Below the pieces are notes generated by a model that was given only the letters and a program-made list of their open reading frames with translations, did not search any database and had not been told where the DNA came from. From a virus, in IMG/VR virus record IMGVR_UViG_3300035698_014711, positions 9,297 through 73,296 of that record: a stretch of DNA of 64,000 nt; one strand, 5' to 3'. The position numbers and the translations under genes were made by a program. Shown here in pieces: positions 3,747-38,268 of this stretch. The stretch's first letter is position 1. The number at the start of each line of letters is the position of its first letter.

Positions 3747-4552
3747 TCAAATTGTCCAAATACTATTTCAGCATTTCTTATTCGTGTTTCAGTTGCTGCA
3801 TAAGCAGCGTTAGGTCTTTCAAACTTATCTTGAAAAACAATTGTAGCTTCTCTAATTGTATCTGTAGCTTTTAATTCACTCAGGCCAAGATAAGGTTTTG
3901 TATTCAATTCAAATATAATAAAGTCCAATTGTGTTTCAAGTGATAGATGAGATCTTCTTGTTCTTGAAGCAAAATCCTTTAAAGCATCTAATCTTCCTGC
4001 AGCAGGATTCCATTGAGCAATTCCTAAAGAACCTTCACCAGCTGCAACAATGGTTGGGTTTATATTTATTCCAGACTCTTGCATTAGATTACCAACAATA
4101 CCTGCAGCTTGTTCAGGGCTGAATCCTTTATCAATAAAGTAATTAAATGCCTTCTCAGTATTATCAGCACCTGTTAAGTCTGCTTGCTCTAGAGGAGTAT
4201 CAAACATGTAGTCCGAAAATGCTGGCCCAGTACTTCCTCTAATAGATGCGGAGACTGTTTCTTCAATCTTAGGTATTGTTCCCCAGATAATTGGAGACTG
4301 TGAAGCATTACCGTCTATAAAGTATCCTATAACTGTAGCTCCGGGTAGCACATTGGGATTCAAACCGAGGCCCGAGACTCCAGGCTCAGTAGTAGGAAGA
4401 ATTACTGCAGCCCAGGGAAGTTTACTATTGGGTATCTGGGCTGCAGTACCGTGCAACCCTCTGATTCTAATTAAGATTCTCCCAAGCTTTAATGGATCTC
4501 TATTATCAATTGCTGTTCCGACAAACCAACGGAATTTATCACCGTAGAACAT
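3743..4552 (-). CDS. gp5 N-terminal OB-fold domain fused to phage tail lysozyme
   Basis: WFVG..DPLKLGRILIRIRGLH..LPWA (gp5 OB); QAAGIVGNLMQESG..GIAQW..FERP (tail lysozyme 2). Confidence 0.85.
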   Translation of the reverse strand: MFYGDKFRWFVGTAIDNRDPLKLGRILIRIRGLHGTAAQIPNSKLPWAAVILPTTEPGVSGLGLNPNVLPGATVIGYFIDGNASQSPIIWGTIPKIEETVSASIRGSTGPAFSDYMFDTPLEQADLTGADNTEKAFNYFIDKGFSPEQAAGIVGNLMQESGININPTIVAAGEGSLGIAQWNPAAGRLDALKDFASRTRRSHLSLETQLDFIIFELNTKPYLGLSELKATDTIREATIVFQDKFERPNAAYAATETRIRNAEIVFGQFE

Positions 4553-5880
4553 TAATTATTTCCTTCAGTATTCATAAGTTTTGTCCCAGTAACATTAACT
4601 GAGTACTTAGTTCTAGAAAAGGTATGTTGTGCCGCGTAGATAAGATACAGACCTGATTTCTTTGAGTCATATATGTCATACTCAGAGATATTATCCCCAA
4701 GAGGAACAATGTTCTTCGAGAATCTCATGTGCATCATATTACCCACACAGACTTTATCAGTATCAGTTATAAATTTTCTGCCAGGTACTTCAATAGTAAT
4801 TGGAGATTTCATAATAAGATCACGTAGGTTTTCAGCAAATCTTATCTTAGAAAAATCACCCTCAAACTCTTGATCATGAATAGAGTTAATATGGTCACTG
4901 TATTGTTGAGAAAAGAATAGACGAGAATCATTAACTGAATTAAAGTTATGTAATCCTCCCATAAACTTATCATCATAAAGCTTATTATAGCTATTGGGAA
5001 ACATTTCAGCAATAGTAACATACTGCTGAAGAAGATTCATTCTGAATGTGATTTCTCTCTGATTAGTTAAATTAGTATAGTTCTGAATAGAACCAATAGA
5101 ACCATTCAGAACCTGCTTGAGGGTATTATCTACTTTTGATTCAGAAAATGCAGAGATATTATAGGACTGTATTTCAATATTCAAAGATTCACTCTTCTGT
5201 GCAAGAAGATGGGAATAAGTAAAGGCTTGATCAACTGTATTAATAGGCTCATCAAGAATCATTTGTGCTAAAGAAAGAAAATTCATCCTTTTTCTTGGCG
5301 ATAGTGATGAAAAGAAAAAATAAGGAGTACCAATTGTATCTGTTGATTTATCTCTGATTACTCTAGCTGCATCAAATGCATTTATAGAAGGCACAAGATA
5401 TCTCATTGTTGATTGTGAGCTAATTGTTGAATTAAGTTCTCTATCAATTTCAGCTTCAGCCAGAAGCTTACTCATAATAGCTTCTGGCTTGCCATCAAAT
5501 GACTTAGTAATAATACTTTTTGCCTGCTGAAAATATATGTCTTCAACTATAGCAAAGAATATTAATTCAGAATTATCATTAACCTTTTCTGATACAATTC
5601 TTTCTGTGATAACAAATCTCTTCTCGATGATTACATCAGTCTTATCTTGAAGACAATAACCCACCTCAAAGAACTCAGTACCTGAAAAATCAATAGTGTT
5701 CAAAAAATCAACTGTATCTATTATGGCTAGAGTCCCAGTCAAGTACGGCTTATCAATATGTTCATGAATGTTGAGTTCAGAAATAGCTTCTGTGATATCA
5801 TAAACATCATCAAATCTATCTGCTGATATTTCAGCCTTAGTGAAGTAATATGAATATGGTGAGGAGAAATTATCTGCCAT
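4552..5880 (-). CDS. Baseplate hub protein (gp27-like position)
   Basis: 442 aa, between gp53 and gp5; HEHIDKPYLTG and SGLYLIYAAQHTF motifs. Confidence 0.6.
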   Translation of the reverse strand: MADNFSSPYSYYFTKAEISADRFDDVYDITEAISELNIHEHIDKPYLTGTLAIIDTVDFLNTIDFSGTEFFEVGYCLQDKTDVIIEKRFVITERIVSEKVNDNSELIFFAIVEDIYFQQAKSIITKSFDGKPEAIMSKLLAEAEIDRELNSTISSQSTMRYLVPSINAFDAARVIRDKSTDTIGTPYFFFSSLSPRKRMNFLSLAQMILDEPINTVDQAFTYSHLLAQKSESLNIEIQSYNISAFSESKVDNTLKQVLNGSIGSIQNYTNLTNQREITFRMNLLQQYVTIAEMFPNSYNKLYDDKFMGGLHNFNSVNDSRLFFSQQYSDHINSIHDQEFEGDFSKIRFAENLRDLIMKSPITIEVPGRKFITDTDKVCVGNMMHMRFSKNIVPLGDNISEYDIYDSKKSGLYLIYAAQHTFSRTKYSVNVTGTKLMNTEGNN

Positions 5881-9068: not shown

Positions 9069-9774
9069 ATTAAACGCTTCCCCAAAGTTTACTACCAAGA
9101 TTCCTTCCACAGGTAAATCTGTGAGGTTCCGACCTTATTTAGTTAAAGAAGATAAGGTACTTATGATTGCTTATGAATCAGGAGATTCTGCTACTGTGCT
9201 GAGTACTGTTCTCGATACAATTGAAGCTTGCTACGACGAGATTGATGCTCGGAATCTTACTCTTTTTGACTGCTTACATCTCTTCTCAATATTGAGGTCT
9301 AAATCAGTTGGTGAAGTTGTTGAGCTCAACATTGAATGTGCAGAATGTAATGCACTTAATCCAGTTGATGTTGATCTTGAGAAGTCTGCTATGTATGAAA
9401 TAGAAGGTACTATAGAGTCTGAAACAGCTATAGCTCTTCAGGAAGATATGGACCTTATTGTCGCATGGCCGACTATGAAAGATGTTATTCAGCACCCCGA
9501 GGTCTTTACGAGTAAATCTCAAACAGAGCTTGGCTTGATCATGCTTAAAATAGTTCTTAGAGAAATCAGAACAGAAGAAGAAATAAGTCTCTTCAAGGAA
9601 GCAAGTGATAATGATATTGAAGAGTTTATTGGTTCCTTAAATGCTCGTCAATTTGCCTCAGTAAATTCTTATATTAAGAATCTCCCTGTGATGAAATATA
9701 AGATTGATTTTGAGTGCAGAGAATGTAAGCATAAGAATACTATGGAGCTGGAAGACCCACAAGATTTTTTTTAA
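9055..9774 (+). CDS. Baseplate hub assembly protein (gp26-like)
   Basis: TTG start after GGAGA; LPKL..PSTGKSVRFRPYLVKEDK..LRSKSVGE; CxxC pairs; ends DFF. Confidence 0.85.
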   Translation: MTLPKLNASPKFTTKIPSTGKSVRFRPYLVKEDKVLMIAYESGDSATVLSTVLDTIEACYDEIDARNLTLFDCLHLFSILRSKSVGEVVELNIECAECNALNPVDVDLEKSAMYEIEGTIESETAIALQEDMDLIVAWPTMKDVIQHPEVFTSKSQTELGLIMLKIVLREIRTEEEISLFKEASDNDIEEFIGSLNARQFASVNSYIKNLPVMKYKIDFECRECKHKNTMELEDPQDFF

Positions 9775-23383: not shown

Positions 23384-24823
23384 TTACTTTCTTTTCTTAA
23401 GCCATGGCTTGTCAATCTCACCAGCCATCATAGAACCCAAAGGAAGGATTTCATCTACAATGTTAGCAAGCTTATAGTCTTCAATTTGACGGCGGACTTC
23501 TGCTGCAGACTTATAGGCGCCGGGAAGTTCAGAAGGATCTGGCATCCCAGTATAGAACCTAGCATCAATATGACCAGCCTGTTCCTCCATAATCTGAGCA
23601 GTAGTCTTATGAGCATTCAATTTCTTGAATTTAGTCCGAGACATATTCCGTCCAGCCCCATGAGGAGCAAACCCGAACTCATTCTTTTCATGATCTTTTA
23701 CAATCAAGATAGGCTCGCCCATGTTTAAGGGAATAATAGTTCTTCCGTGGATATCTGCGTCGTGAGCGTGTTGACCGAACACAGGTGTAGAACCCTTGGC
23801 ATGGTAGAAGTTTTCTCCTTGCTTAAAGACAAAGTTATGCTCATTCCAGAAACGGTCGATAATGTTTGGAGTATCCATATTCATTGCACGCATCACAGCA
23901 TCATGGATCACAGTATGGTTCCACTTTGTCCATTCTCGAATGATTTGCAAAGCTTCCCAATATTCCTTACCTTCTTCGGTATCATATGGAATCCAAGCAT
24001 TGTGCTTTGGAATGTCTGGAGCAATTTCTCTCCGAACAAGTTCAGCTGCAATCATGCCATTCTTATATAACAAAGCTCCAGGCTTACGAGACCCGTGATG
24101 AGTAATGAAAACAAGCTTTCCGTCAGACTTTGCTTTGCCTACATAGAAGAAGTGGTTTCCATCACCCTGAGTTCCAAGATGATCAGACATTGCTTTAAGC
24201 ATTTGAACTGATGCAAGGAAACGGTTATCTTTTGCTCGGTTGGTGATAGGACCAGAATGTTCCATCGACAGGTCTTTTCTTCCCCCAGGCCCAAAATGAG
24301 ACTGAGCTTGGACATGATCAAGAATATCAGCCACATCAAATTCGTCTGCATCAAAATCAAACTTTGTCAAAAACATTGAGCAGCAAATATCAGCAGAGTG
24401 CATTCCTGGATGGATAGCATTCTTAGCTACTGCTACAGCCCCAACAGGAATAGTTCCTAATGTGCCCCCAGCTGGACAAGCATCAGGGAGTATAGCAGCA
24501 TCTACAATGGTGGGAATTCTCATCAATTCAGCCATATGCTCATGGACTGCAGACATGTTTTCTTTTTCATACTCATTGTTGCCAGCATCAGCAAAGACAT
24601 GGTAGGGCTTCTTAAATTTCTCATCCAAAAAGACCATGTTCTCTGCTCGGTCACGGCGAATAGTTTCCTCCATATCATTATGCTCTTGAATCATCTCAAA
24701 CATTGCTTCTTCGATGATAGTTTCTTCAATATCATTCTCATGCAAGGCTGCAGCAACTGCTAACATGTCTGCAAAATGTGGCCCGGGTTTACACCCGAGC
24801 TCTATTAGTCTGTTTCCGTCCAT
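23384..24823 (-). CDS. rtcB: RtcB RNA 3'-phosphate ligase
   Basis: PDAC..IPVG..SADICC..GTQGDGNHF..HHGSR..NEHN..HGAGR..ELPGAYK. Confidence 0.92.
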   Translation of the reverse strand: MDGNRLIELGCKPGPHFADMLAVAAALHENDIEETIIEEAMFEMIQEHNDMEETIRRDRAENMVFLDEKFKKPYHVFADAGNNEYEKENMSAVHEHMAELMRIPTIVDAAILPDACPAGGTLGTIPVGAVAVAKNAIHPGMHSADICCSMFLTKFDFDADEFDVADILDHVQAQSHFGPGGRKDLSMEHSGPITNRAKDNRFLASVQMLKAMSDHLGTQGDGNHFFYVGKAKSDGKLVFITHHGSRKPGALLYKNGMIAAELVRREIAPDIPKHNAWIPYDTEEGKEYWEALQIIREWTKWNHTVIHDAVMRAMNMDTPNIIDRFWNEHNFVFKQGENFYHAKGSTPVFGQHAHDADIHGRTIIPLNMGEPILIVKDHEKNEFGFAPHGAGRNMSRTKFKKLNAHKTTAQIMEEQAGHIDARFYTGMPDPSELPGAYKSAAEVRRQIEDYKLANIVDEILPLGSMMAGEIDKPWLKKRK

Positions 24824-24834
24824 AACTTTTCCTA

Positions 24835-25488
24835 TTATGTTTTTGGTCGCTTGACCAAGGCATCCTTTGACGGACAATTATTCCCTGGCTTGTAAGAGCT
24901 CATGAAGTTTACCCGTGCTTCATCTCCACCATTTTCAATCCAGATACCCTCTGTTTTTCCACCCCAGGCCTGATACGTTGGTTTTGCTTCATAGATAAAG
25001 GCATCACCATCACCGTCTACTGCCAAATATTGGAACTTAGGATCAATTTGGCTCCAGTCAATAGAAGGCTTTACAACTGGCTTTGTCACGAGACGATAGA
25101 CTCGGTTGGGGAGCAATTTAAAGACAGAGCCTTGCTTCCAGATTCCATCACCACCTATACGGTGCCCCGCATATGTCTTTACTACTTCAGTCCATGCACC
25201 AAGTTTCGTATAGACTTCAATTGGTCCTGCAGATTCAGCAAAGGCATCCTGCATCTCTTTTGACAATAGCCCGTAAGCAGTTGTGTTCTCAACAAGCTGC
25301 TTAGTGCATCGCGGGACAAGTTCAAAATAGCCCGCGGTGCTGCTCCACTGATTGATAACCTCAATTGCGCCGGCATATGGTACGTCTAGAACTACGTACT
25401 CAGTACCGACAATACCGAAGCGGCTGGGATCATGTGACTCTACAGTCCTGATAACCGTATCACCTACATTAAAATTATGCTTATTCAT
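24835..25488 (-). CDS. Hypothetical protein
   Basis: C-terminal KPSIDWSQI..YLAVDGDG..KP module common in phages. Confidence 0.55.
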   Translation of the reverse strand: MNKHNFNVGDTVIRTVESHDPSRFGIVGTEYVVLDVPYAGAIEVINQWSSTAGYFELVPRCTKQLVENTTAYGLLSKEMQDAFAESAGPIEVYTKLGAWTEVVKTYAGHRIGGDGIWKQGSVFKLLPNRVYRLVTKPVVKPSIDWSQIDPKFQYLAVDGDGDAFIYEAKPTYQAWGGKTEGIWIENGGDEARVNFMSSYKPGNNCPSKDALVKRPKT

Positions 25489-25669: not shown

Positions 25670-26026
25670 TTAGAGAATTGCTTTCCAATGTTTATTAAAC
25701 TCTGTCATATATGACTGAATATTTTCTGCTCCAACCGGATTAGCACTATGCACATGCCAGCTAAAGTCAGGGTCATATTTTACTTTTTGGTCTAGAATAT
25801 AATCACAGATCCATTTTGCAAAGGTGAAGCCGGTCTTTTCTTCGTAGAATTTGCCGACATCAGCCAGATCGTGATCAAAGCTAACAAAGCTTGGAAGTCC
25901 GTATTGCGTGACTGCCCAAACAGCATCATTCATTGACCGGCAGATTACTAGCTCTTTAAGAGGAGCATAGTCATATTTTACTTGAGATGGAAAGCGGATA
26001 TCATCTAAGAAAAGTTTCCAGTTCAT
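25670..26026 (-). CDS. Cyclic-phosphate-processing receiver-like domain protein
   Basis: KLFLDDIR..SFDHDL..TG..VHSANPVG. Confidence 0.8.
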   Translation of the reverse strand: MNWKLFLDDIRFPSQVKYDYAPLKELVICRSMNDAVWAVTQYGLPSFVSFDHDLADVGKFYEEKTGFTFAKWICDYILDQKVKYDPDFSWHVHSANPVGAENIQSYMTEFNKHWKAIL

Positions 26027-29488: not shown

Positions 29489-29560
29489 TGGAGCGGACAG
29501 AGGGAATCTAACCCTCTCCTTAAGTTTGGAAAACTATTTGGCTAACATAGCCCTGCCCGC
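29489..29560 (-). tRNA. tRNA-Gly (TCC)
   Basis: GCGGGCA/TGTCCGC acceptor, TTTCCAA loop, U73-CCA; short D arm. Confidence 0.8.
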
Positions 29561-29563
29561 ATA

Positions 29564-29616
29564 ACCGTGGAGTGTTGAGTTTTTATGCAATAAAATTAAG
29601 GAACACTCTTTACGGT
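29564..29616 (-). ncRNA. Bulged-stem RNA unit A (GTTCCTTA motif)
   Basis: ACCGT-AAA-GAGTGTT-CCTTA..AACACTC-C-ACGGT; late promoter at 29624-29631. Confidence 0.7.
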
Positions 29617-29634
29617 AGAATAGTATTTATAAGA

Positions 29635-29862
29635 TTAACATCGCATTTTTGGATCAGAATGAAAAGGACTCATTCCAGTTTTACCTGCATGAGCTTCATT
29701 AAGCTTTTCTTGTTGATCAGCTGGATAGCTTGGATCAATTTCATGAAGAAAAACCATATTCAAGTGTCTCTTGATTAGATCCACTTGCTGAGAGTTAATA
29801 TTAACAGGCTCGGCTACTTCAAAGAAGCCCTGTAGCCAATAGCAAAATTCTGTAGATTTCAT
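29635..29862 (-). CDS. Conserved small phage protein
   Basis: MKSTEFCYWLQGFFE..IKRHLNMVF; start set at 29862 after AAGGA. Confidence 0.75.
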   Translation of the reverse strand: MKSTEFCYWLQGFFEVAEPVNINSQQVDLIKRHLNMVFLHEIDPSYPADQQEKLNEAHAGKTGMSPFHSDPKMRC

Positions 29863-29877
29863 GTCAGTATCCTTAAA

Positions 29878-30067
29878 TGGCGAGTTGTAATTTGGTGGCA
29901 CGCAAGGGCCTTGCTTGATGTAAGGAACAACTTGTGCCGATGTGAATATGCCGGAGTGTAAGGTTTCTAAAATGAATGAATAAGGAACACTCTTTGGCAA
30001 TATGTTAATGATGAGCTGTTAAAAATCGGAGGTTGGTCCGACCACGAGTAAGGAACAGCTTTTATCA
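29878..30067 (-). ncRNA. Three tandem bulged-stem RNA units B, C, D (GTTCCTTA motif)
   Basis: Units at 29878-29939, 29949-29999 and 30009-30067 with compensatory stem changes. Confidence 0.7.
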
Positions 30068-30073
30068 AATTTC

Positions 30074-31819
30074 TTAAAGAGACAACAAAGCCTCCAATTT
30101 ATCATAGCTGAATGATGAATAAGTCAGATCGTAATCATACTCAACACCAGGTACAGCTACTTTATCATAGCCTACGCCAATCAGGCCAAGAACTTCTTGA
30201 AGAGTAAAGACAGAGTTAAGACCTTTTTCAATCAGAGGGTTCTTTCCGTTTGATGAAACATGCCTATTTCCCGTCCGTCCTGTAAACACAGTAAAGGTTG
30301 TGCCCTTGACAAAGCCAAGGATAACTTCCTTAGACTGCATAGTGAATTCTTCCTGAATGATTGGGTTCTGAATCCACTCCCCTTTGGTCTTTTGACCTAC
30401 AATCAATGAAGCCTTACAGCCAATTTCACCAGAGTAAATATTAACATTAAGACCATATTCAGAACCAGAAGAGGAGGTCATGAATTCCATAGCATCAGGG
30501 GTAGGTGTAACAACATCACCAGAATAGATAATCTGTCCGTCAGTATATCCACCAGTGCCGCCCCAGCCTATACGATTTCCATCTTTATCAATAGAAGATA
30601 AGTCAAGATCTCGAGCTCCACCGTCTTTATGCCAATAGATACCAGAAGAGATAGATTCTGCAGCAACGTGGATCTTTGTGCCAAAAGGTAGATTACCCAG
30701 AGTCTGCTTCTGAGAGATTGGAAGACCATAGTCAACATTAGTATCCAGAAGGATTTTCTTATCTTTCAGGTATTCTAGATCAACTTTAATAGAAGAAATA
30801 ATAGTATTCTGAAGCTGACCTAATACTTTCAGATCATAGACTTTAACATCTGCAGTCTTTACAAAGAGCTTGCCATTCCGAATATTGAAAACATCTACAT
30901 CTAGCTGCTTGCATTTATACTCAACCAGGTTAAGAAATTTGAACTTATCTCGCAGAGAAGCTTTAGATAATAGATCAAGGGGATCTGTAATCTTACCTGC
31001 AATAGCATCAGCAATGAAGGTCTTTGTCCATGACTGCTTGAGCGGAATATGAACTGTTTTGCTCAACCTAGAGATATAGTTAATCTGAGTTTTATTGCTC
31101 TTATGCTTGACAGACATAATTACTGCTTTGTGTCGGTTAAAGACTTGAGCAAGAGCAAGAGCGTTACGGCTATAAAAGCTTGAAGGAATAAGAGCGGCTG
31201 ACATTTTGCAAGCCTGGAGAACTTCTTTTGATTTAATCAGAAGAGTATCACCTGTTGCTCGATAGATAATATAGCGGACTGCATCATCACCACAATCAAA
31301 AGTGTCATTGTTAGCATCAAAGAGCAATACTCTAAGCTCGTTATTCTCAACAAGATTGACATTGAACTGAATGAGATACCTATCAATGATAGCTTTCAGA
31401 CCAAGGACATCCTTGACCGGAGCATTGCTATACATGAGCTTCCGAACTTTATCACCAAGTTCTTCTTCAGTAATGCCGATAACAAACTTTAGAGTAAAAG
31501 TAGGCTCTTGAGTCTCATTTATGATAGTAAAAGAACCACCAAGACCGTCAAGACCCATGCCATAAACTTCGAGATAATGGATGAACTGTGTGGTCAGAAG
31601 GTAAGGAAGTGAAGCCTTTTGTCGTTCTTCCACTGTAAAAAGAGTACGAACTGGGAGCCCACGATCATTATGCTTGAAAAACAATTGTTGCTCAGGAGAT
31701 GGGTTAAAGTTTAAAACATAACCATGCGCAATCATAGTAGTAACAAATGCATCTCTTGAAACCTGATCAGCATCAATTACAGTAGCATTAAATAGGTCTA
31801 GAACTTCTTTCATAATCAT
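30074..31819 (-). CDS. 581-aa protein with helical middle region and C-terminal TerD-like domain
   Basis: QFIHYLEVYG..FNRHK..GNLPFGT..GIYW..DLDLS..IGW..YSGDVV..AMEF. Confidence 0.65.
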   Translation of the reverse strand: MIMKEVLDLFNATVIDADQVSRDAFVTTMIAHGYVLNFNPSPEQQLFFKHNDRGLPVRTLFTVEERQKASLPYLLTTQFIHYLEVYGMGLDGLGGSFTIINETQEPTFTLKFVIGITEEELGDKVRKLMYSNAPVKDVLGLKAIIDRYLIQFNVNLVENNELRVLLFDANNDTFDCGDDAVRYIIYRATGDTLLIKSKEVLQACKMSAALIPSSFYSRNALALAQVFNRHKAVIMSVKHKSNKTQINYISRLSKTVHIPLKQSWTKTFIADAIAGKITDPLDLLSKASLRDKFKFLNLVEYKCKQLDVDVFNIRNGKLFVKTADVKVYDLKVLGQLQNTIISSIKVDLEYLKDKKILLDTNVDYGLPISQKQTLGNLPFGTKIHVAAESISSGIYWHKDGGARDLDLSSIDKDGNRIGWGGTGGYTDGQIIYSGDVVTPTPDAMEFMTSSSGSEYGLNVNIYSGEIGCKASLIVGQKTKGEWIQNPIIQEEFTMQSKEVILGFVKGTTFTVFTGRTGNRHVSSNGKNPLIEKGLNSVFTLQEVLGLIGVGYDKVAVPGVEYDYDLTYSSFSYDKLEALLSL

Positions 31820-31832
31820 TCCTCTTTCAAAT

Positions 31833-31906
31833 TGGATGTGCGAGCTGGGATCGAACCAGCATTAACGGGGTCAAAGGCCGCTTTCCTGCCATTAGAAGAT
31901 CGCACA
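31833..31906 (-). tRNA. tRNA-Gln (TTG)
   Basis: Canonical; paralog of the 26805 tRNA. Confidence 0.9.
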
Positions 31907-36250: not shown

Positions 36251-36321
36251 TGGAGCGGGTAGAGGGAATCGAACCCTCTCCTTGAGTGTGGCACACTTGT
36301 TGGCTCCATAGCCTTACCCGC
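36251..36321 (-). tRNA. tRNA-Gly (GCC)
   Basis: Paralog of Gly-TCC at 29489. Confidence 0.8.
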
Positions 36322-36888: not shown

Positions 36889-38268
36889 TTAAATTGCTGC
36901 ATTTTTCCGAACTGTTGAGAAGGAAGTATCACGTAGAAGCTTTCCATCAAGAAAGACATCCTCAAGAAGATTTACTTCCCCAGCCTTGAGATCACTTTCA
37001 CGGAATGTTTCCTTACCATTGTAGGCGAGACGGCCTCTCTTGGAAGTTTTACCTCCGTGGATAGGATCTTTCCAAGTATCAATCCAAGCTTCGCCTTTAT
37101 GAATTGCAGAAGCTTTCATTGCATAGCCAAGAGTGTCTCGGCTTACATTCTGGAGAAGTCCTCCACCCATTCCGAAGGCAATATTCTCAGTTGAGATTCC
37201 TTGAATTTCAAGATTATCAAGGATTTTTGGAAGTGATGTAGAATCAATGCCGTCACCTTGAATGACTCGAATATAAGGAGGAAGTACTTTATAGCCTTTT
37301 GAATTGGTAGTATATCCGAACTCTTCCATTAGAATTTTAATGACTTCAATCGGAACAACGGTTGGAGAGCCTGAGTCTGGACGGATAACAAGAGTGCCGC
37401 CTGAGTTGATAATCATATCTTTAAACTCTCGGCCTACAATGTTCCTTGCCATATTGTAGATATCATAGGAATCAGACACCATGGCCAGGAGTTTTCCCTC
37501 ACCAGAGAAAAGTGTCATCATATTTTTAAGAGCTTCTGCTTCGCCTTCACGGCCCCATGAAGTCACGGTGGAGTGTTCTGAGGCGGGAATAGAGAATCCT
37601 GCCATATCTTCACCATAGTAGTGACGAGCTCCAAGAAGACCGGCAACTGTGTCGGTTCCCATAAAGTTCACAAGGTGAGCGGTTCCACCAAGCATTGCTT
37701 GTTCAAGACAAGTAGCACCACGAGCACCAAAGTCATGCAATTTGAAAGCAATCTGATCAGCAACTGGCACATCAGACGTAATTTCAAGTGCATTGGCGAT
37801 GTGTAGCTTCATGTTTCTCGATACTGTTGCAACTGTTGACGGATACCACACAGCTCGAAGCAAGGCAGTTTCAATAAAGCTTGGCAACCAAGAGCAATTT
37901 TCATCAGTATTGATAATCTGGACTTGCACATTTGAAGATTCCATAACAGTTCCTTCTGGAACAGCCTGGATTCTCAGGGGTAAATAGCCACTGTGTTCTA
38001 GCAAAATGTATTCCCAATCTTCCCGATAGAAAGGGAGACCGTGAGCTAGGATAATCATTTCCGCTTCATTGATATCAGCTTGGGTGAAAGGTTCTAGAAG
38101 ATATTCTTTAATGAACATCTGCAATCCAAAGAACACAGTCACCTTATCAGCCTTGCGAGCTTCAATATATGAGTTTACAAACTTGATGTCTGGAGCCCAT
38201 TGCCGGGGTTGGCTATACTTATAGCTATCAGAATTGAGAATTAGATTGGCGATTAGATTATTTCTCAT
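36889..38268 (-). CDS. nadV: Nicotinamide phosphoribosyltransferase
   Basis: SDSYKYSQ..HDFGARG..PASEHS..SDSYD..IRPDSG..IQGDG..AFGMGG. Confidence 0.95.
   Translation of the reverse strand: MRNNLIANLILNSDSYKYSQPRQWAPDIKFVNSYIEARKADKVTVFFGLQMFIKEYLLEPFTQADINEAEMIILAHGLPFYREDWEYILLEHSGYLPLRIQAVPEGTVMESSNVQVQIINTDENCSWLPSFIETALLRAVWYPSTVATVSRNMKLHIANALEITSDVPVADQIAFKLHDFGARGATCLEQAMLGGTAHLVNFMGTDTVAGLLGARHYYGEDMAGFSIPASEHSTVTSWGREGEAEALKNMMTLFSGEGKLLAMVSDSYDIYNMARNIVGREFKDMIINSGGTLVIRPDSGSPTVVPIEVIKILMEEFGYTTNSKGYKVLPPYIRVIQGDGIDSTSLPKILDNLEIQGISTENIAFGMGGGLLQNVSRDTLGYAMKASAIHKGEAWIDTWKDPIHGGKTSKRGRLAYNGKETFRESDLKAGEVNLLEDVFLDGKLLRDTSFSTVRKNAAI

Follow-up and report, generated by a model that had tools for sequence, protein, structure and literature searches.

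A covarying bulged-stem RNA family linked to an uncharacterised protein family in phages and Bacteroidota

Here, we describe four small RNA units and the protein gene beside them in a stretch of 64,000 nucleotides (nt) of viral DNA, positions 9,297 to 73,296 of the IMG/VR record IMGVR_UViG_3300035698_014711, which is hereafter referred to as the window. The source record has 73,296 bases and a completeness estimate of 37%. The gene is an open reading frame (ORF) for a protein of 581 amino acids (aa), and the units, named A to D, are bulged stems located at 29564-30067 on the same, minus strand. The window has at least 19 transfer RNA (tRNA) genes on this strand, and the module formed by the units and the gene sits within this phage tRNA cluster. 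Related modules are found in other phages and in bacteria, and a covarying RNA family is tightly linked to the family of the 581-aa protein. We propose that the units and the protein may form a ribonucleoprotein that is analogous to that of Ro60 and Y RNA.

The four RNA units and their covariation

The four units share a common shape, in which the outer stem leads into an AAA bulge that faces a single C, then into an inner stem of 6 base pairs (bp) and the sequence GUUCCUUA. In the separately folded units, the outer stem has 3-5 bp and is followed by the A-rich bulge of 3 nt and by the inner stem, while the single C is bulged on the 3' strand. The folding z-scores of the four units are -3.40, -3.93, -1.81 and -3.60. 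A preliminary description of the window, made from the sequence, had drawn the same four bulged stems, and all of its checkable details were correct; for unit B, the earlier limits of 29878-29939 add one unpaired base per side to those given in Table 1. Exact copies of TGTTCCTTA occur four times in the window, always on the minus strand and each within a unit, and none was found outside the four units in the 73,296-base record.

Unit D begins 7 nt past the TAA stop codon of the 581-aa ORF, the spacing that had been reported before. The 3' end of unit B is followed, after 16 nt, by the ATG of a 75-aa ORF, beyond which lies unit A. The latter is preceded, at a distance of 7 nt, by the octamer TATAAATA, and a tRNA begins 3 nt past its end, so that a cut by RNase P at this tRNA would form the 3' end of unit A. 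The preliminary description had given unit A a promoter of its own and a tRNA-Gly as its neighbour. The octamer and the tRNA are both in place; TATAAATA is identical to the late promoter consensus of phage T4, and the assignment as Gly(UCC) was made by inspection only, ARAGORN making no call there. The octamer is present in 17 copies against 4.4 expected, an about four-fold excess, and 16 of these 17 are on the strand of the units.

Loci encoding homologues of the 581-aa protein were scanned for the architecture of the units, and 53 clear units were obtained. The 33 short-loop units that aligned cleanly form alignment A4, from which the covariance model R1 was built. A second alignment, A6, comprises 73 units found by the model, about 40 of them outside the training set. 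Pairing is seen in 97.0% of the cells of A4 and in 95.8% of those of A6; the percentage for A4 is inflated because the scanner demanded pairing, which leaves the double changes unaffected. In both alignments, 10 of the 11 pairs have changes on both sides. The earlier statement that the stems differ and yet keep pairing is thus borne out, with covariation scores of 0.87-0.91 against 0.24 after shuffling (0.908 against 0.246 in A4; 0.866 against 0.240 in A6). When the partner strand was slid by 1-3 columns, the scores were 0.10-0.16 for A4 and 0.09-0.19 for A6. Furthermore, RNAalifold, used unguided, arrives at these 11 pairs as well.

Little or no variation is seen in the AAA bulge, in the bulged C, in the G-C and U-A pairs that close the inner stem and in the UCCU directly after them. 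The conserved part of the family, hereafter called the handle, can be described as AAA/C plus GUUCCU(U/A)A around an inner helix of 6 bp. The presence of G-U pairs and the constant strand indicate an RNA rather than a DNA element. The loops are mostly 20-33 nt long and rich in A and U. About one third of the short loops have UUGGAA or a close variant in the middle, as judged by eye (A4 columns 30-40; for example L017 4878-4931 and L024 2600-2653, loci other than the window being numbered with an L), and this segment could pair with the invariant UUCC as an alternative or tertiary contact.

When both strands of the 64-kb window were searched with R1, the four units were matched with E-values of 1.9e-11 to 2.7e-4, and nothing else was. 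Rfam 15, scanned at E up to 1, has no family on the units; the preliminary description had allowed for a known one. From their sequence and predicted structure, the four units are probably genes for small non-coding RNAs, each about 50-60 nt in length, from a previously undescribed family. In the literature found, neither the RNA nor the protein family is described, although a catalogue of RtcB neighbours may list the protein family. In existing annotation, the units are unannotated or, in phage Phass-1, overlain by a hypothetical ORF. This coding sequence covers four of the six Phass-1 units (L150 5602-5901; 92744-93043 of the phage record) and is probably not a real gene.

Co-occurrence with the protein family and structure of the 581-aa protein

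The preliminary description had proposed that a covariance model be compared with the occurrence of homologues of the protein, and the two do go together. Units matched by R1 lie beside the homologous gene in 19 of 21 viral contigs, in all three named phages and in 48 of 52 bacterial loci, the last with 143 matches. In the viral set, L010 was matched only with an unfiltered search, and L019 and L025 are without the relevant flank. Of the bacterial loci, 51 are from Bacteroidota, 28 of these from Chryseobacterium; three of the four unmatched loci are truncated or fragmentary, and the fourth, L166, keeps its upstream flank. All unit matches are on the strand of the protein gene. The units are just upstream of the gene in most clades and just downstream in the clade of the window and in L146. 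In Synechococcus phage S-CRM01, they are found on both sides of the protein gene g174, while in Synechococcus phage S-CBWM1 (gene product gp22) one of the units lies 2.5 kb upstream, within a tRNA array. In the gut phage Phass-1, six units are located 1.3 kb downstream of the gene, past two other ORFs.

The linkage was also examined in reverse. A seed of 15 bases fetched 80 viral loci, which were then scanned with R1. Matches were found in 11 of them, and in nine of these 11 the protein is directly adjacent: eight have it in the fetched stretch, and the ninth, L027, begins just past the gene. The last two R1-positive loci are contigs of about 4 kb. The remaining 69 loci, about 600 kb, gave no R1 match; L062, which is among them, has the protein and a weak unit only. 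No other conserved protein neighbour of the module was found among 20 regions, namely the window and 19 loci.

The 581-aa protein itself has no sequence match in Pfam, PHROG or the Protein Data Bank (PDB). Its relatives number 308 by a word-indexed search, and an exhaustive search (E up to 0.001) gave 1352 representatives of clusters at 50% identity. The full-length AlphaFold2 model has a predicted local distance difference test (pLDDT) score of 80.6 and a predicted template modelling (pTM) score of 0.55. It can be described as composed of an α/β start, a helical region (118-353), an all-β region (356-515) and terminal helices. Compared with the PDB by Foldseek, the full model gave matches at chance level only, with template modelling (TM) scores of at most 0.13, and no Ro60 entry was among the matches listed. 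A separate model of residues 350-539 has a pLDDT of 79.4 and a pTM of 0.80. The best PDB match of these C-terminal 190 residues is 3ibz, a TerD protein (E 2.4e-5, probability 1.00), and 2qng is matched as well (E 8.1e-4); the match to 3ibz is a moderate one, as its TM score is near 0.5 (0.47-0.50). On the predicted model, the C-terminal domain is TerD-like at fold level, although the Pfam TerD family is unmatched. The TerD likeness noted in the preliminary description therefore holds for this domain, and the fold search proposed there pointed to TerD and not to Ro60.

A profile of the family compared with PDB sequences gave nothing, either at full length or with the C-terminal domain, NCBIfam gave nothing useful, and the N-terminal 352 residues found no named family in the ESM Atlas. 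No nuclease fold or motif appeared in any search of the protein. Its structural relatives include proteins from Campylobacter phages and Lactobacillus phage LpeD, all of them uncharacterised, and a relative in BFVD carries the label 'putative tellurium resistant like protein'. The motifs DLDLS and SGD are conserved in the alignments of the family.

tRNA-like modules and genomic surroundings

In some relatives, the loop of the unit holds a larger module. Units of L021, L147 and S-CRM01 enclose a T arm, a closed acceptor stem and a D arm in the order known from YrlA. In L021, the first half consists of the 3' strand of the anticodon stem, a variable region, the T arm and the 3' strand of the acceptor stem, which leads into a loop; the second half consists of the 5' strand of the acceptor stem, the D arm and the 5' strand of the anticodon stem. 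Chen et al. 2014 (PMC4201824) describe this topology for the bacterial YrlA Y RNAs. Such a domain is seen in two units of L021, in L147, in two units of S-CRM01 and, partially, in L014. The YrlA model RF02553 matches below threshold in L021 (33.1 bits, E 2.3e-5), L147 (39.2 bits) and S-CRM01 (35.9 bits), its gathering score being 69 bits.

The handle is also found inside tRNAs. In 13 of 20 Bacteroidota loci examined, the first member of the array is a tRNA, 108-119 nt long and above the tRNA threshold of Rfam, in which the motif is an insert of 40-48 nt. The insert corresponds to a circular permutation of the motif, which runs from the inner 3' strand through the C, a capped outer stem, the AAA and the inner 5' strand to UCCUAUAAA. 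Ten of 15 such tRNAs have the strict permuted motif, and the other five have one mismatched inner pair (by eye). By inspection, some of them retain a CAU anticodon hairpin. As the handle is joined to tRNA bodies in either permutation, it can be regarded as a portable module.

In bacteria, the gene for the RNA ligase RtcB is adjacent to the module, on the same strand, in 37 of the 52 loci, either 5' of the RNAs or 3' of the protein gene. In L187, from a Chryseobacterium chromosome, the order is rtcB, a motif-bearing tRNA (50.3 bits, with an insert of 46 nt), three units and the protein gene, and the flanks beyond the module are ordinary chromosomal genes (CobS, histidine phosphatase). By gene order, the module and rtcB form an operon in Bacteroidota. 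Directly 3' of the L187 protein gene, a 107-nt repeat is present in 9.4 tandem copies with 93% matches (4183-5174).

The recurrent context of the module in phages is a tRNA cluster, often with a phage transfer-messenger RNA (tmRNA) gene as well. In five loci, the tmRNA gene, one of permuted type, lies 0.1-2.5 kb from the module; it directly follows the last unit in L005 and L150 and the protein gene in L016. The positions are collected in Table 1 with the features of the window.

Table 1 Features of the module and its surroundings in the window, and tmRNA genes near the module in other loci.
Feature	Sequence	Position	Strand	Evidence or remark
581-aa protein gene, uncharacterised family	window	30074-31819	minus	ORF
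Unit D, bulged-stem RNA, 7-bp hairpin inside loop	window	30009-30067	minus	R1 30.2 bits, E 1.8e-5
Unit C, bulged-stem RNA, short A/U-rich loop	window	29949-29999	minus	R1 50.8 bits, E 1.9e-11
Unit B, bulged-stem RNA, small G+C hairpin inside loop	window	29879-29938	minus	R1 26.1 bits, E 2.7e-4
75-aa ORF between units B and A	window	29635-29862	minus	phrog_28500/35763, function unknown
TATAAATA octamer, T4-late-promoter-like	window	29624-29631	minus	7 nt 5' of unit A
Unit A, bulged-stem RNA between promoter-like octamer and tRNA	window	29564-29616	minus	R1 48.2 bits, E 1.1e-10
tRNA with encoded CCA, UCC triplet in unusually paired anticodon arm	window	29492-29560	minus	RF00005, 32.6 bits
tRNA-Gln(UUG) directly 5' of 581-aa gene	window	31833-31906	minus	ARAGORN and Rfam
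RtcB RNA ligase gene, 5.2 kb downstream	window	23384-24877	minus	PF01139, E 9.5e-35
cREC_REC (cyclic-phosphate processing receiver) domain protein	window	25670-26026	minus	PF20274, E 4.3e-21
Second tRNA-like gene with encoded CCA	window	36254-36321	minus	Rfam 28.3 bits, uncalled by ARAGORN
Nicotinamide phosphoribosyltransferase gene, near tRNA cluster	window	36889-38268	minus	
tmRNA gene	L005	4846-5244		
tmRNA gene	L016	4549-4803		
tmRNA gene	L014	3530-3806		
tmRNA gene	L150	6068-6506		
tmRNA gene	L010	6873-7239		

The 75-aa ORF shows no conservation beside the module in the other regions compared. A listed ORF of 121 aa, which starts with TTG and lies within 29635-30000 (minus), crosses units B and C and is gene-like only over the final 75 codons, which begin with the ATG at 29862. 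The anticodon arms of the tRNA next to unit A and of the second tRNA-like gene can pair up to a 3-nt loop, with UCC and GCC, both glycine triplets, respectively. RtcB, the cREC protein and the nicotinamide phosphoribosyltransferase around the tRNA cluster look like an island for RNA repair and nicotinamide adenine dinucleotide (NAD). At the DNA level, the region is similar to phage records in one 51-nt piece of tRNA only.

A candidate ribonucleoprotein and its relation to known systems

The units and the 581-aa protein may represent a ribonucleoprotein of a non-TROVE kind, analogous to Ro60/Y RNA and with a role in RNA surveillance or repair. We give this reading a probability of about 60%, the binding, the expression and the function being inferred. 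It is the simplest one, as a covarying handle follows one protein family, carries tRNA-like cargo and adjoins RtcB. In each RNA, the 5' and 3' ends are paired in the outer stem, and an asymmetric internal loop of AAA against the single C separates this stem from the 6-bp helix. After the G-C and U-A pairs in which the helix ends comes UCCU(U/A)A, which is single-stranded. What remains of the loop is a free module, be it a short linker of A and U, a hairpin or, among the relatives, a complete tRNA-like domain. The 581-aa protein, with its helical domain and its putative TerD-like β-sandwich, would bind the handle, and the resulting particle, built like Ro60/Y RNA from unrelated parts, would act in RNA surveillance or repair alongside ligation of the RtcB type. 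In phages, it would likely serve to maintain the apparatus of tRNAs and translation while the infection proceeds, for instance where host nucleases cleave tRNAs.

Several observations weigh against this reading. The protein has no recognised RNA-binding domain, and TerD domains belong to Ca-binding stress proteins that are not known to bind RNA or to have RNA partners. The tRNA-like domain is absent from all four units of the window, and a strict T arm is present in 4 of 77 scanner units, so that tRNA-like cargo is found in a minority only. The idea of RtcB as a conserved neighbour in phages was rejected, as its gene occurs in 1 of 10 records and in none of 28 locus flanks and is far from the module. 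The L166 locus has no model match in its intact upstream flank. A Chryseobacterium genome (G019, contig 1, 936568-936951) has a 321-aa frame that matches positions 274-389 only of the TROVE model, with 38.2 bits, about 5 kb from the module. The sequences listed as containing the stretch are DNA contigs only, with no RNA run among them. Lastly, the usual position of the units, next to the start of the gene, also fits cis-regulation.

In that alternative, the units would lie as operators in the leader or trailer of the protein's own mRNA and would allow the protein to repress or stabilise this message, with no free RNAs acting in trans. The units always lie on the strand of the gene and abut it, their last member ends 10-40 nt before the start codon in most clades (L021, L187, S-CBWM1), and no other conserved neighbour was found. 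However, they follow the stop codon in the clade of the window and in L146, they flank the gene of S-CRM01 on both sides, and in S-CBWM1 a unit stands inside the distant tRNA array upstream. The six Phass-1 units lie behind two ORFs, and unit A is separated from the gene by another ORF and has a promoter-like octamer of its own and a tRNA next to it. For an operator, arrays that comprise as many as six units and carry tRNA-like cargo would also be unexpected. We therefore regard pure cis-regulation as unlikely, although autoregulation could exist alongside a role in trans.

A smaller chance is given to the bulged helix being a processing signal at which the protein cuts and RtcB rejoins, whereby permuted or interrupted tRNAs would be matured or circular RNAs made. 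The frequent adjacency of RtcB, a tRNA-splicing ligase, in bacterial loci, the permuted tRNA body inside some units and the tRNA inserts of 40-48 nt would all suit it. However, in L187, L171 and L021 no anticodon loop of 7 nt is left once the motif is cut out at one or the other end of the inner helix, most units, with their loops of 20-33 nt, enclose nothing tRNA-like, and the searches of the protein gave no nuclease. The archaeal bulge-helix-bulge, which flanks the intron at 37/38, has two 3-nt bulges with a 4-bp helix between them (3-4-3), whereas the bulges of the units are of 3 and 1 nt and stand 6 bp apart. We rate this possibility as quite improbable. Slightly less probable still is that the units are base-pairing small RNAs, in which UUCCU would face Shine-Dalgarno-like AGGAA, the loop would give the specificity and the protein would be a chaperone. 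The invariant, single-stranded UCCU is complementary to AGGA and resembles the 3' end of 16S ribosomal RNA, and the loops beside it vary. However, apart from the trivial antisense strand, no complement of at least 12 nt to the four loops was found elsewhere in the 64-kb window, and both the tRNA-like cargo and the permuted form embedded in tRNAs would be left unexplained. All three alternatives leave the combination of tRNA chimeras and scattered unit positions unexplained.

A wider proposal, to which we give slightly less than even odds, is that the particle represents a second, independent invention of the Ro60/Y RNA kind, an RtcB-linked repair particle of Bacteroidota that was adopted by phages, with arrays of handles as adaptors or decoys. 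Phages of many lineages (T4-like cyanophages, gut phages and jumbo phages) would have adopted it to protect or mimic tRNAs in the infected cell. Hairpins, bare linkers and tRNA bodies could all receive the handle, in one circular permutation or the other, and arrays of differing handles would direct the one protein to several targets, be they RNAs or enzymes. A large unannotated protein family, of 1352 clusters, is tied to a strongly covarying RNA family outside Rfam, and the annotation of the units would be corrected. RNA and protein go together in phages that are in culture (S-CRM01, S-CBWM1) and in Bacteroidota that can be cultured, which provide testable systems. The questions that it opens are how RNA-repair machines find their substrates, what the small RNAs of phage tRNA clusters do, and which role a TerD-like domain has outside tellurite resistance.

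Several known systems can be compared with the module. The species 1 and 2 RNAs of phage T4 are small structured RNAs that are encoded and processed among phage tRNA genes. The units resemble them by description only, and we know of no partner protein for the T4 RNAs. The protein shares with TerD (PF02342; 3ibz, from Streptomyces coelicolor) its predicted C-terminal fold and the DLDLS and SGD motifs. However, Pfam TerD has no match at E up to 1 in 54 family members, and in contrast to TerD the domain is joined to some 350 residues without a recognised fold. Residues 27-581 can be aligned to the MXAN_6230/SCO0854 RING proteins of Actinomycetota (NF041916; ESM Atlas, TM 0.63 by query), which differ in having about 990 aa and an N-terminal RING domain. 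The sequence match to NF041916 is negligible, with a best E of 0.039 and 12 bits against a cut-off of 600 bits in one of four members tested, and no function or RNA partner of that family was found in the literature.

The preliminary description had considered a kinship of the protein with TROVE/Ro60, and none was detected, whether in Pfam, in the profile comparison or in the fold. Neither TROVE (PF05731) nor any other Pfam family matches the window protein or, at E up to 1, any of 54 family members, and the hhalign probability of the family profile against the TROVE protein of phage Bxz1 is 2%. The Bxz1 protein served as the positive control, with matches to Ro60 structures at about 1e-99. 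None of the 10 module-carrying viral records tested contains TROVE, and neither do four of five bacterial genomes, the fifth being the Chryseobacterium genome mentioned above. The architecture of a HEAT-repeat ring with a vWA domain was ruled out on the predicted model, in which a helical middle is present but the C-terminal domain is all-β; Ro60 has its vWA domain where the 581-aa protein would have the TerD-like one. A paper on phage CKA15 (PMC12282133) proposes Y RNAs beside an Rsr-like protein. Listeria phage P100, which is related to CKA15, matches neither the TROVE nor the 581-aa family profile, and that lead is thus unconnected.

The likeness to Y RNAs that had been suggested for the units stands in part. 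In Chen et al. 2014 (PMC4201824), the Ro-binding motif in the terminal stem of Y RNA is given as GGUCCGA or GNCGAAN0-1G. The units conserve AAA/C and GUUCCU(U/A)A instead, and unlike in Y RNA their single bulged C is on the 3' strand. The four units of the window, which are without a tRNA-like domain, have no match to RF00019 or RF02553 at E up to 1, and no unit of the family reaches the YrlA gathering score, the best having 39.2 bits. To our knowledge, Ro60/Y RNA is the only well-studied case in which a protein of RNA quality control relies on small RNAs that are modular and mimic tRNAs, and its function in bacteria is still poorly understood. The parallels are those of organisation. As with Ro60 (Rsr) and the YrlA of bacteria and phages, a protein of about 550-600 aa is encoded beside one to several small RNAs, the two ends of each RNA form a bulged stem, and the part at the far end is a variable module. 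For some members of the family, this variable part is a tRNA-like domain that is permuted as in YrlA, with partial RF02553 matches of 33-39 bits, and in the bacterial loci RtcB is adjacent to the module, as in the rsr-yrlBA-rtcBA operon for RNA repair.

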